A stretch of 8,144 nt of DNA from a virus (IMGVR_UViG_2695420485_000006); one strand, 5' to 3'. Shown: positions 2,144-5,021, counted from the first letter of the stretch. Notes: a model not told the origin generated them from the letters alone. A program made the numbers and translations.

Positions 2144-3805
2144 TTATATGAAAAAAACCTCATACGCTTTCTTTTTCGGTTCCGGATTCAGGGACATCAG
2201 GGACACCGCATTGAAGAGCGCCATCAGCGGGTCAATTTTTCCCCGTCCGCTGGCCTGTTTGGTGATAAGAATGGCGTTACCTTTAGGCTCCACCCGGGCA
2301 TTGCCAACGCACCAGGCCATCAGTGGCTGACCACCATGCACCAGTACTCCCTCAGCCAGTTTGCGCTCGGTGGTTTTTATGGCCCCGCCCAGCTTCCAGC
2401 CCTGGCTTATCCCCACAACAATTCCGTCGGGGATCCCGGCTTCCGCCAGTGAATCCAGAATCTGCCCCACACCTGACGGGTCAATACCGATATGCTCCAG
2501 TAACTCAGCCTCATGAATACGACGCACATACTCCGCCACTTCCGCCGTGTCATCCCCGACCCGACGGACAATCGTCATGTCTCCACAGGCCACAAAATCC
2601 TGAAAACGGGATGCCTCACTCTTCCGTCTGACCACCGCGGTTTCATGCGCCCAGGCATGGCCCCAGCCCAGCCATTCGCGGGTTTCCCTGTCACGGCCAA
2701 TCACGTACATTCCCAGCAGATCATCCAGGCCCCCGCCGTCAATCCCCACCGTCACCACATCAGCGCGCTGCAGGATATCGTCCAGGCTGACGCGCCTGCC
2801 CTGCTGCTCCCAGAAATCCGCACCCACCCAGCGGTCAGAACGCAGGGCAAGACCAATTTCCACATTGGCATGTTTTGACATGAAGCCACGAAATGCTTCC
2901 TCACCAGCCTCCCGGGCTTTACGGTACTCCCGGTACAGAAAAGCCTCATCCACCGAATAACCGAGATTCGGGTTAACCATGGCGAGGTTTTCCATCAGCA
3001 GGTGAGCCCCGCTTTCCACCATTTCAGGAGGATGCTCAAAAATCACCGGCAGAAAGTGCGGATCATGAATTTTGCCGTCACGGACATCCCGGGCATACTG
3101 CAGTTTCTGTCTGAACACCCCGGCGGGCGGTTCATTCGACTGGGTGGTCGTATACACCACAAACCCTTCCGGACGGGAGGCAAGCCCGCCGATGGCTTCA
3201 CGTAGCATGTCTTCCGCCTTGTACTGCTTGCCAAACAGCCACAGTTCATCAATCAGTGTCCCCACGGACTTGATACCGGACACCGTATTCGGATCGGCTG
3301 CCACCACCTTCAGGGTGGTGTCCGTCACCCGATGGGTGATGGTCCGGATATGTGTCTGCACCTGACAGAGGTCATCCAGATCATCGTCCCGTCGTACCAT
3401 ATCCCTGGCAGGGTTGAAGGCGTTAGCCGCCACCTCCACGGTCGGGGCCAGAATCGTGTAACCCGCCGCCTGCCGCCAGTTCAGTAACAGTGCAGTCATC
3501 ATGATCCCCGCGGCCAGCGTGGACTTCGAGTTTTTCTTGGGGATAAGGATAAAAACTTCCTTGATATGGCGTACACCGGTCTGCGCATCGTAGGAGCCAA
3601 ACAGGGCCGCCACCAGGTCAAACACCCACGGTGCACAGGACTCCCCGAACGTAGGGCTACCAGGTGCATCCACAATCCGCAGTTGTTTAAAAATCGCCAG
3701 GGCATGTGCGGCCTCGTCCGGATAAATCGGATCCGGAATAATCGACAGCCCCTTTTGCAGGCGCTCTGCCCAGTCCGGGCAGGCTGTGCTCCATACAGGT
3801 ATCAT
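2144..3805 (-). CDS. Terminase large subunit (Terminase_1-like ATPase/nuclease)
   Basis: 553-aa ORF. ATG at 3805 overlaps the TerS stop (ATGA). Walker-A-like PKKNSKST around residues 89-96, acidic nuclease-type region VGIDGGGLDDLLG, and a C-terminus (KIDPLMALFNAV) typical of this terminase family, all from memory of the family pattern. Confidence 0.9.
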   Translation of the reverse strand: MIPVWSTACPDWAERLQKGLSIIPDPIYPDEAAHALAIFKQLRIVDAPGSPTFGESCAPWVFDLVAALFGSYDAQTGVRHIKEVFILIPKKNSKSTLAAGIMMTALLLNWRQAAGYTILAPTVEVAANAFNPARDMVRRDDDLDDLCQVQTHIRTITHRVTDTTLKVVAADPNTVSGIKSVGTLIDELWLFGKQYKAEDMLREAIGGLASRPEGFVVYTTTQSNEPPAGVFRQKLQYARDVRDGKIHDPHFLPVIFEHPPEMVESGAHLLMENLAMVNPNLGYSVDEAFLYREYRKAREAGEEAFRGFMSKHANVEIGLALRSDRWVGADFWEQQGRRVSLDDILQRADVVTVGIDGGGLDDLLGMYVIGRDRETREWLGWGHAWAHETAVVRRKSEASRFQDFVACGDMTIVRRVGDDTAEVAEYVRRIHEAELLEHIGIDPSGVGQILDSLAEAGIPDGIVVGISQGWKLGGAIKTTERKLAEGVLVHGGQPLMAWCVGNARVEPKGNAILITKQASGRGKIDPLMALFNAVSLMSLNPEPKKKAYEVFFI

Positions 3806-4365
3806 CCGTTGCCCTCATTATCGTTATTCACCACCAGTCGGGGGGGCGGTGGCACCGCAAAACGGTTAGCCGCTTTTTTCGCGGCATCACCTTTTGCCGA
3901 TTTTTTACCGGCATCGCCTTTTTTATGGTGCGTGAACTGCGCCAGACGCCAGGCCGCATCCAGTGCCAGTTTCGGATCAATGCAGAGGTTTTCCACCAGG
4001 ATCCGCCCCATGGCTTTCACCGGATCGGGAAGACCATCCTCCATATATTCAATACCAGGAGACATCACCGCGGACGGTGGCATCTCCGGATTGTTTTCGT
4101 CCGGCTGTGGTATTGCAGCCACCTCACGGCGACGGGGTTTATCCTCCTGCTCTGATTTTTTCTGCCGGTAAACAGGAACCTCATCCACCTCCACCGTCTC
4201 GCACTGTTTACGGGCTATAAACGCGAGCACCTCCGGATCTTTTGCCAGCTGCGAGCCTTTAACCCTGGCGGTCTTCGCCGAATAACCGGCGGCAATGGCT
4301 GACGCTGTTTTGTTTTTCCCGGACATGAGCGCCAGCGCAAATTTTCGTTTTTGCGTTGTCAGCAC
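3802..4365 (-). CDS. Terminase small subunit (P27/HK97-type)
   Basis: 187-aa ORF. GTG start at 4365 preceded by GGGAGGAGG. N-terminal KRKFALALMSGKNKTASAIAAGYSAKTARVKGSQLAKDPEVLAFI matches the conserved HTH region of phage terminase small subunits. Stop overlaps the TerL start. Confidence 0.85.
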   Translation of the reverse strand: MLTTQKRKFALALMSGKNKTASAIAAGYSAKTARVKGSQLAKDPEVLAFIARKQCETVEVDEVPVYRQKKSEQEDKPRRREVAAIPQPDENNPEMPPSAVMSPGIEYMEDGLPDPVKAMGRILVENLCIDPKLALDAAWRLAQFTHHKKGDAGKKSAKGDAAKKAANRFAVPPPPRLVVNNDNEGNG

Positions 4366-4437
4366 AGCCTCCTCCCGGGTCCAGAACGCACTCAGCCGGG
4401 TATGGTTCAGCCCATTTTTCCCGGCGTCTCATGCCGC

Positions 4438-4565
4438 AAATGTTAACTGCTGCCTGGTTAACATTTGCTGAAAAAGCCAGTTAACATTTTTTTCGCACAA
4501 CAAACTGAATAATAAAGATAAAAACCGCAAAAATGCCCGGGCAGCCAGTTAACATGTTAACTGCC
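4438..4565. repeat. Array of GTTAAC-core sites (putative TerS recognition elements, cosB-like)
   Basis: GTTAAC at 4442-4447, 4457-4462, 4480-4485, 4548-4553 and 4556-4561. The 12-mer GCCAGTTAACAT is repeated at 4476-4487 and 4544-4555. A perfect 18-bp palindrome CAGTTAACATGTTAACTG lies at 4546-4563. An A/T-rich block (about 4490-4530) sits between the sites. Confidence 0.5.
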
Positions 4566-4590
4566 CTGAAACAGGAATTTTTTCTCTGCA

Positions 4591-4655
4591 TGAGACGGGG
4601 GGCGGTGTCCGGGGCGATCGTTTTTTTCGCCGGATGATCCCCCCCCCGGGGCGGA
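4591..4655. other. GC-rich block with homopolymer runs; candidate cos nicking region (cosN-like)
   Basis: G6 run at 4597-4602, T7 at 4621-4627, C9 at 4639-4647. Repeated CGGGGCG(G)AT motifs. Lies between the HNH stop (4656) and the GTTAAC array. Confidence 0.35.
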
Positions 4656-5021
4656 TCACAGTCCGATGATATCGTCTGCCCTGCCATGACCTCCGGACAC
4701 CTCCGGCAGCGTCGGGTCCGGCATACCACTCGCCGTTTCACTGACTGACTTCTGGCGATGGCATTCGGTACAGAGCGTCCAGAGATTCGTCTCCTCATTA
4801 CCACCACCGAACTGAAGTGCAATGCGGTGATCGAGTTCACTGTCACAGAGGTCAACCACACGACCACAGAGACAGCACTGCCCGGCATCCCTGAGCCAGA
4901 TATGACGCTTGAGGGAAACACGTGCACTGCCACTGACACGACGCTGTTCCCCCTTCAGAATATTCACCCGTCGGGTGTTCAGAGTTTTGATTCTGCTCTG
5001 GAGTGTACGAAGCTCAGCCAT
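4656..5021 (-). CDS. HNH endonuclease (phage packaging-associated, HK97 gp74-like)
   Basis: 121-aa ORF with an HNH/zinc-finger core CCLCGR..DSELDHRIALQFGGGNEETNLWTLCTECHRQK. GGGGA Shine-Dalgarno 6 nt before the ATG. Sits immediately upstream of the cos-like region and terminase genes. Confidence 0.85.
   Translation of the reverse strand: MAELRTLQSRIKTLNTRRVNILKGEQRRVSGSARVSLKRHIWLRDAGQCCLCGRVVDLCDSELDHRIALQFGGGNEETNLWTLCTECHRQKSVSETASGMPDPTLPEVSGGHGRADDIIGL

Follow-up and report, generated by a model that had tools for sequence, protein, structure and literature searches.

In phage HK97, an HNH endonuclease has a role in cos cleavage (PMC11331095), and the small terminase (TerS) reads a single 15-bp, A-tract-containing site, at +15 to +29 from the cut, as the DNA leaves the central tunnel of the protein (PMC11331095). 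Small terminases of the SPP1 and SF6 build are ring oligomers with peripheral HTH domains, and the multipartite pac recognition of SPP1 is described as involving multiple contacts flanking the cut (PMC9611059). Closest to the locus considered here are cos phages whose ends have been mapped by experiment. Induced virions of Lys8385Vzw, analyzed with PhageTerm, have 3′ cohesive ends, with the 10-nt sequence CGCCCCCCCT at the genome end (PMC7946995), and the Acinetobacter phages fEg-Aba01 and fLi-Aba03 have HK97-type 10-nt 3′ ends, CGCCCCCCAT, identified with PhageTerm and a heat/anneal gel (PMC7354433). These papers report the 10-nt end only and do not describe repeats (PMC7946995, PMC7354433); literature string searches with the motif and the overhang returned nothing relevant except the same two phage papers, and no description of the repeats. 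What is new here is an array of GTTAAC sites beside the cut; the cos end of this phage group was already known.

The window, by which we mean the whole 8,144-nucleotide stretch of DNA that was analyzed, is by its sequence a Pankowvirus-type lambdoid prophage (the long-tailed Stx-phage type). Its DNA is 95 to 99% identical to that of the Stx-converting or related lambdoid phages 2851, 1717, BP-4795, YYZ-2008, and phi330, the genus of which is Pankowvirus. All real genes of the window lie on the minus strand, in the order holin, lysozyme, Rz, an Ant/Rha-like ORF, HNH, spacer, terS, terL, and a protease-capsid fusion. A preliminary description of the locus, made from the sequence alone, had proposed the layout HNH, repeats, TerS, TerL, and Pfam assignments agree with it:

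4656 to 5021, minus strand: HNH endonuclease gene, the last gene before cos, at the right end of the virion chromosome.
4366 to 4655: HNH-terS spacer, 290 bp.
3802 to 4365, minus strand: terS, 187 aa, with a GTG start (4365) and a strong SD, GGAGGAGG, at 4368 to 4375.
2144 to 3805, minus strand: terL, 553 aa, with ATPase and nuclease (Pfam PF03354 and PF20441).

The spacer was found in 1,244 of 5,426 complete E. coli genomes, with a maximum of 7 copies per genome, and also in many Shiga-toxin-converting phages, so this cos would govern the packaging and transduction of stx. Directly after terL, a 645-aa fusion of prohead protease and major capsid protein is encoded (143 to 2080; Pfam S78 and Phage_capsid). 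The HK97 order is terL-portal-protease-capsid, whereas the window has no portal gene between terL and the protease-capsid fusion.

The three packaging proteins resemble those of HK97 unequally. TerL is 23% identical to HK97 gp2 over 489 aa (BLASTP, E 9e-12). The HNH protein matches Pfam PF01844 (28.3 bits against a cut-off of 21.4) and phrog_589, HNH endonuclease (E 1.3e-42), and relatives have an HNH gene in the equivalent position, but BLASTP gives no significant similarity between it and HK97 gp74 (E 0.085). An HK97-type TerS was considered and rejected (BLASTP against gp1, E 1.2): the sole Pfam match of the window TerS is Terminase_2 (PF03592, residues 2 to 57, 35.9 bits against a cut-off of 26.1), the family that also contains the N-terminal HTH of the SPP1 and SF6 small terminases. 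TerS also matches phrog_641 and, weakly, the sequences of three SF6 DNA-binding domain structures (PDB 4zc3, 2cmp, and 3zqp; E 0.2 to 0.8). SPP1 and SF6 are headful (pac) packagers, whereas the phage group of the window has defined cohesive ends. The N terminus of TerS, MLTTQKRKFALALMSG, aligns from residue 1 with its relatives. In the Lys8385Vzw record (locus L003, 185 to 793; MT225100), terS is annotated from a CTG that lies 15 codons further upstream; because of the alignment of relatives and the strong SD, the sequence indicates that its true start is the GTG equivalent to window position 4365. In a window-type terS elsewhere (L107, IMGVR_UViG_2671181134_000002, 1501 to 2208), about 49 codons of the linker are duplicated in tandem within the gene (PEVLAFIARKQ...PQPDEN occurs twice over).

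Homology to the two experimentally mapped relatives places the cut and gives its chemistry for this prophage, which may itself be defective. Lys8385Vzw, the TerL of which is 99.3% identical to that of the window, is 96 to 99% identical to the window across the whole spacer, all five GTTAAC sites included. Its record ends with ...GGACACCGCCCCCCCT and restarts with CTCACGCAGAGAAAAAATTCC / CTCACGCAGAG, a junction that corresponds to 4595|4594 in the window, so that by homology the published end maps to 4595 to 4604 and the top-strand cut falls between 4595 and 4594. At overhang position 9, the window has G and Lys8385Vzw has C; among unique relatives, 4596 is polymorphic (G in 10, C in 43). The more distant fLi-Aba03, with a TerL 52% identical to that of the window, has GGACAC left of the end and CGCACGCACAAAAAAAATTCCC right of the end in common with it. 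The relatives thus have defined cohesive ends and not headful-type (pac) ends. The preliminary description had predicted termini within 4590 to 4660, where by homology they map, and had called the site architecture undetermined, although the cut site of this phage group has been in print since 2021. It had also assigned the locus to HK97-type cos phages; the 10-nt 3′ overhang, the adjacent HNH gene, and the gp2-related TerL bear this out, and the Terminase_2, SF6-type HTH TerS does not. From left to right of the cut in gene orientation, the elements are as follows:

4635 to 4658: GC-rich imperfect palindrome, with C9 on the plus strand at 4639 to 4647 (G9 in gene orientation).
4605 to 4638, minus strand: left arm of cos, ATCATCCGGCGAAAAAAACGATCGCCCCGGACAC in gene orientation, holding the T7 run at 4621 to 4627.
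4595 to 4604, minus strand: cohesive end CGCCCCCCGT, a 10-nt 3′ overhang that contains the G6 run of the preliminary description.
4564 to 4594, minus strand: right flank, CTCATGCAGAGAAAAAATTCC..., with an A6 tract at 4578 to 4583 (+12 to +17).
4546 to 4563: proximal palindrome CAGTTAACATGTTAACTG, two inverted sites at +34 to +39 and +42 to +47.
4488 to 4545, minus strand: A+T-rich spacer with T-tracts, a putative 24-codon relic ORF, and a fragment resembling terS codons 48 to 54.
4478 to 4491, plus strand: single site CAGTTAACATTTTT, core at +110 to +115.
4436 to 4468: distal interrupted palindrome GCAAATGTTAAC-N9-GTTAACATTTGC, with perfect 12-nt arms and cores at +133 to +138 and +148 to +153.
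4395 to 4464, minus strand: putative decayed copy of the terS 5′ end (about codons 1 to 19), overlapping the distal sites.

Around the cut, the likeness to HK97 is one of layout. Both have a 10-nt 3′ overhang with HNH just to the left and terS just to the right (HK97 gp1 TerS, gp2 TerL, and gp74 HNH), a run of eight or nine G residues about 43 to 44 nt left of the cut (G8 at 43 nt in HK97), an overhang rich in C (CGCCGCCAAA for HK97, CGCCCCCCGT for the window), and, no more than 30 nt right of the cut, an A/T tract, which in HK97 is a T-tract followed by terS. The GC-rich block noticed earlier is as described, with 70% G+C over 4590 to 4655 and runs of G6 (4597 to 4602), T7, and C9, the last of which ends about 44 nt left of the cut. 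In the left arm, CGATCGCC and GGACAC are conserved family-wide, and the window has GAAAAAAA where most relatives have GTAAACAT (GTTAAC in L017 and L176). The right flank is nearly invariant from Enterobacterales to Burkholderia and Acinetobacter.

A run of six to nine G residues is present at this place in most relatives, in fLi-Aba03, in a PICI-like island treated below, and in HK97; lying about 36 to 45 nt left of the cut (window 4639 to 4647; HK97, L216, 685 to 692; fLi-Aba03, L349, 383 to 388), it is kept from HK97 to Acinetobacter even where the flanks differ. We found no published role for it; a cosQ-like termination element is a possible, speculative reading. In three relatives with ATTAAC in place of GTTAAC at +35 (L132 to L134), an exact 11-mer, CATGTTAACTG, occurs about 64 nt left of the cut, just before the G-run. 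The C/G run left of cos also holds an IS110-family element, ISEc20, in the PPompW prophages (L217, 2775 to 4233; LC567828), at the equivalent of window position 4643 or so; beyond ISEc20 lie tRNA genes and Q, the HNH and lysis genes are missing, and these prophages are probably unable to cut their own cos.

To the right of the cut, the window departs from HK97, with its single 15-bp site, in having a multi-copy array of palindromic cores together with an HTH-type TerS. The window contains eight GTTAAC sites against 1.11 expected, a number reached in none of 200 shuffles, and with eight sites placed at random the chance of at least five within 120 bp is 1.5e-5. Five clustered cores had been reported between 4442 and 4561, and they start at 4442, 4457, 4480, 4548, and 4556; of the sites outside the cluster, that report gave two (5326 and 6624) and missed a third, at 2972. 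The perfect 18-bp palindrome that it described at 4546 to 4563 is exact, as is the 12-mer shared by two copies, GCCAGTTAACAT, which can be lengthened to 16 nt with 94% identity. The hexamer is only part of the repeat unit: a 12- to 14-nt motif, CAGTTAACATKT, occurs in five oriented copies (CAGTTAACATTTGC, TGGTTAACATTTGC, CAGTTAACATTTTT, CAGTTAACATGTTA, and CAGTTAACATGTTA). Measured from the cut, the cores begin at +34, +42, +110, +133, and +148, and the array spans +34 to +153; the spacings of 8, 68, 23, and 15 bp have no helical phasing.

In this respect the locus resembles lambda cosB (R3-I1-R2-R1, the site of gpNu1), in which several short TerS-site repeats of mixed orientation lie between the nicking site and the terS start; the repeats in the window are likewise placed, and in both an A+T-rich segment separates the proximal from the distal repeats. 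Lambda differs in its 12-nt 5′ overhang (the relatives of the window have 10-nt 3′ overhangs), in having no HNH, and in gpNu1, a winged-HTH protein of another family. The A+T-rich spacer had been suggested as a bending or IHF-type site. The spacer is indeed rich in A+T (74% over 4488 to 4533, against 46% window-wide); an IHF site, which lambda needs, is unsupported here: the spacer holds a single one-mismatch match to WATCARNNNNTTR (4498 to 4510), and such matches number 10 in the window against 8.5 expected. The array is most likely the expected kind of element, a cosB-type recognition array, ordinary in kind. What is unusual is the pairing of an HK97-type nuclease system with an SF6-type TerS whose putative site, in most relatives, sits in its own start codon.

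We compared 207 loci that have the cos core in common, and these fall into four layouts by the distance from the cut to the terS start:

Layout A: terS starts 38 to 39 nt from the cut; 96 loci from many enterobacterial genera, including Salmonella phage FSL SP-016.
Layout B: 64 nt; seen in Proteus, with GTTAAC or ATTAAC standing free at +35.
Layout C: 75 nt; the Pantoea type, in which GTTAAC is found at +34 and +47 and RTAAAC at +56.
Layout D: 227 to 230 nt; window type, 102 loci; GTTAAC at +34, +42, +110, +133, and +148.

All four layouts keep GTTAAC or RTWAAC starting 33 to 35 nt right of the cut, and relatives from Enterobacterales, Pseudomonas, Burkholderia, and Acinetobacter have GTTAA-type sites that begin some 34 nt to the right of the cut. 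In layout A, the cut is followed by CTCACGCACAGAAAAAATTCCCCTCTGGAGGGTGTAAAC-ATG-TTA-ACA, such that GTTAAC forms codons 1 to 3 of terS (Met-Leu-Thr) and, together with an upstream GTAAAC, ATTAAC, or ATAAAC, makes a near-palindrome; a further GTAAACAT (again GTTAAC in L017 and L176) lies 29 to 34 nt left of the cut. The proximal palindrome of the window is orthologous to this family-wide GTWAAC-ATG-TTAAC element, which holds the terS start codon in most relatives.

Several comparisons speak to whether the DNA itself, rather than the protein, is conserved. TTA-ACA encodes Leu-Thr in all 66 unique layout-A sequences, in which codons 4, 5, 7, 8, 9, 10, and 16 vary synonymously; as a sign of selection at the DNA level this is only supportive, as some other codons are invariant too. 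Where terS starts elsewhere than at about +39, it starts with ATG-CTA, ATG-CTG, ATG-CTT, or GTG-CTG, and relatives with a displaced start keep free-standing GTTAAC sites at +34 to +47. Two relatives with TerS proteins 67% identical (L220 and L221) have diverged flanks and both cores kept. Phages of GC-rich hosts keep the A+T-rich motif at the terS start (GTTAATGGCGTTAAC in Pseudomonas CF53a and GTTAATGGCTTTAAC in Burkholderia Bcep176), and fLi-Aba03 carries three copies of AGTTAAA, near +33, +46, and +58. The cores are invariant among 55 unique, near-identical spacers, a comparison of little power (P about 0.05), and the pooled enrichment of 57 against 2.4 sites per kb is descriptive; because the compared lineages are related, enrichment statistics overstate independence. 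As a probe of viral contigs, the 14-mer CAGAGAAAAAATTC was rejected as too unspecific. The linker of terS in a Proteus mirabilis prophage (L021, 2680 to 2850) is a 12-nt tandem repeat coding for (K/E/D)VN(S/T), present about 12 times, which puts GTTAAC, GTTAAT, or ATTAAC every 12 nt and so repeats the hexamer of the cos-proximal site; these in-gene hexamers could be coincidence or an in-gene site array, and such GTTAAY repeats inside Proteus terS were left out of the evidence.

The strongest line of evidence for selection on the window-type sites at the DNA level comes from two diverged copies of the array in E. coli genomes, one in a prophage (84% identical) and one in an island (78% identical). 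Over the stretch between the cut and the fifth site, all 38 columns that fall in the motif 8-mers are identical in both copies, whereas the other 121 columns are 84% identical in the prophage copy and 69% identical in the island copy (Fisher p=0.004 and 8e-6, respectively). Invariant in both are AGTTAACATGTTAACTG in the proximal palindrome and AAAAAATGTTAAC in the single site, and both cores of the distal palindrome are kept together with their flanks.

The island is a PICI-like element of about 10 kb between clpS and cspD in E. coli FUJ80154 (L352; NZ_AP024687.1, 3250868 to 3260831). It encodes an integrase, an HTH regulator, an Icd-like protein, a RepA-type helicase/primase, a ClpP-protease/capsid fusion unrelated to the fusion of the window, and a 93-aa unknown protein; no terS, terL, or HNH gene was found in its 10 kb. 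Its cos (L352, 1700 to 1930) lies at the very end of the island and runs from the G-run to the fifth GTTAAC, and similarity to the window sets in with the G-run and breaks off directly beyond that fifth site. Island-type cos was found in 50 of 5,426 genomes. That an island lacking terminase genes has kept the G-run, the cut site, the A-tract, and all five sites points to a cis-acting packaging signal and not to a role in terS expression. The island looks like a satellite of Pankowvirus-type helpers that would have copied the whole cos of its helper. Lambda-type PICIs change cosB, and the island differs from them in this respect.

By these comparisons, the five sites are conserved at the level of DNA and retained in a satellite-like island without terminase genes; TerS as the binder, the geometry of binding, and the direction of packaging are inferred. 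The interval is a Pankowvirus-type cos in which the GTTAAC sites probably form a cosB-like array for an HTH-type TerS, an array that would have grown as the 5′ end of terS was duplicated. Comparative support for the array as a terminase recognition element is strong, short of proof, and its protein partner could be TerS, TerL, HNH, or a host factor. In the mechanism that we propose, TerL and the adjacent HNH would nick the concatemer to leave the 10-nt 3′ overhang CGCCCCCCGT (4595 to 4604), and the virion chromosome would start at 4594 and run into terS and terL, with packaging proceeding rightwards. The N-terminal HTH domains of ring-shaped TerS (one ring or more) would occupy the GTTAAC repeats from +34 to +153, and TerS so bound would position TerL and HNH at the cut, some 35 to 40 bp to the left.

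The alternative that best withstands these data, although we regard it as unlikely, is that TerS reads the conserved A-tract segment at 4574 to 4594, as in HK97, and that the GTTAAC sites serve TerL, HNH, or a nucleoid protein or shape the DNA. The 15-bp site of HK97 TerS, at +15 to +29, likewise contains an A-tract (PMC11331095), the G-run, C-rich overhang, and A/T-tract are laid out alike in the two phages, and CAGAAAAAATTCC, at +9 to +21, hardly varies within the family; the site that TerS actually reads could be the invariant A-tract at +12 to +17. However, the window TerS is unlike gp1 and has an HTH-type N terminus, HTH-type small terminases such as those of lambda and SPP1 use repeated sites, and the GTTAAC sites are as strongly conserved as the A-tract.

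Less probable still is that the proximal palindrome alone matters, the three distal GTTAAC copies being no more than inert remnants of duplicated terS 5′ ends. The segment of about 190 bp that separates the palindrome from the true terS start is lineage-specific and contains three of the five sites. A 24-codon ORF, MLTGCPGIFAVFIFIIQFVVRKKC (4481 to 4555, minus strand), starts at the ATG in the center of the palindrome and is probably not a gene but what is left, after decay, of the ancestral terS reading frame. Within it, GTTTGTTGTGCGAAAAAAA (4505 to 4487) matches nt 143 to 162 of the SP-016 terS at 17 of 19 positions, a match reached in 2 of 2,000 shuffles, and 4464 to 4395 aligns weakly with the 5′ end of the window's own terS (39 of 3,000 shuffles reached the same score) and with the terS of L005 (104 of 3,000). 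These alignments are suggestive of a derivation of the segment from copies of the terS 5′ end, and the position of the extra sites in decayed-terS-like sequence would have its explanation in common descent. Inert leftovers would fit this weak alignment of the distal region, and 96 relatives have the proximal element only; as one near-palindromic site apparently suffices in most relatives, a need for the three extra sites is not obvious. Against inertness, the distal motif columns are 100% conserved where their surroundings are 69 to 84% identical, all five sites persist in the island, which ends directly beyond the fifth, and the most distal core aligns with no GTTAAC in terS and so appears to have been gained by mutation.

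A role of the sites in terS expression, whether through an operator or an RNA hairpin that covers the start codon or through an antisense promoter, is very improbable: the element does straddle the terS ATG in most relatives, and one weak plus-strand promoter-like match (TTAACA-18-TAACAT, 9 of 12 positions) is made of the motif itself, but Proteus, Pantoea, and Acinetobacter relatives have free-standing sites 20 to 40 nt upstream of terS, the complete array persists in the island, where no terS follows it, no terminator was found in the region, and the RNA fold is only mildly stable and not distinctive (z -2.3).

If the GTTAAC sites are the cosB-like array that we favor, the ancestral site would be the proximal palindrome. 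The terS 5′ end with its embedded site would then have been duplicated in the window lineage to give the three distal sites; the duplicated coding parts would have decayed while the sites were kept, and the site would have been lost from the working start codon. A broader reading, which we offer tentatively and think more likely wrong than right, joins these points: a terminase recognition site embedded in the terS start codon (ATG-TTA-AC) may be multiplied by duplication of the terS 5′ end, and the five-site array may have evolved as a stronger cosB that gives an edge in competition for terminase against co-resident prophages of the same type (up to 7 spacer copies per genome) and against the PICI-like satellite that copies the array. 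A defined minimal cos (about 4436 to 4647) could be used in cosmid-style transduction tools, would help to predict which prophages and satellites can be mobilized together, and would serve the study of an HTH-type small terminase working with an HK97-type TerL and an HNH nuclease.

A 15-nt inverted repeat, GCATGAGAC / GTCTCATGC, pairs 4420 to 4434 with 4588 to 4602 at 13 of 15 positions, which puts an inverted copy of the cut-site flank GTCTCATGC beside the most distal GTTAAC site. A second, inverted pseudo-cos at 4420 to 4434 was considered and rejected, as this segment is part of the region that, by alignment, resembles a decayed terS 5′ end; the repeat is probably due to chance or a by-product of the terS relic.
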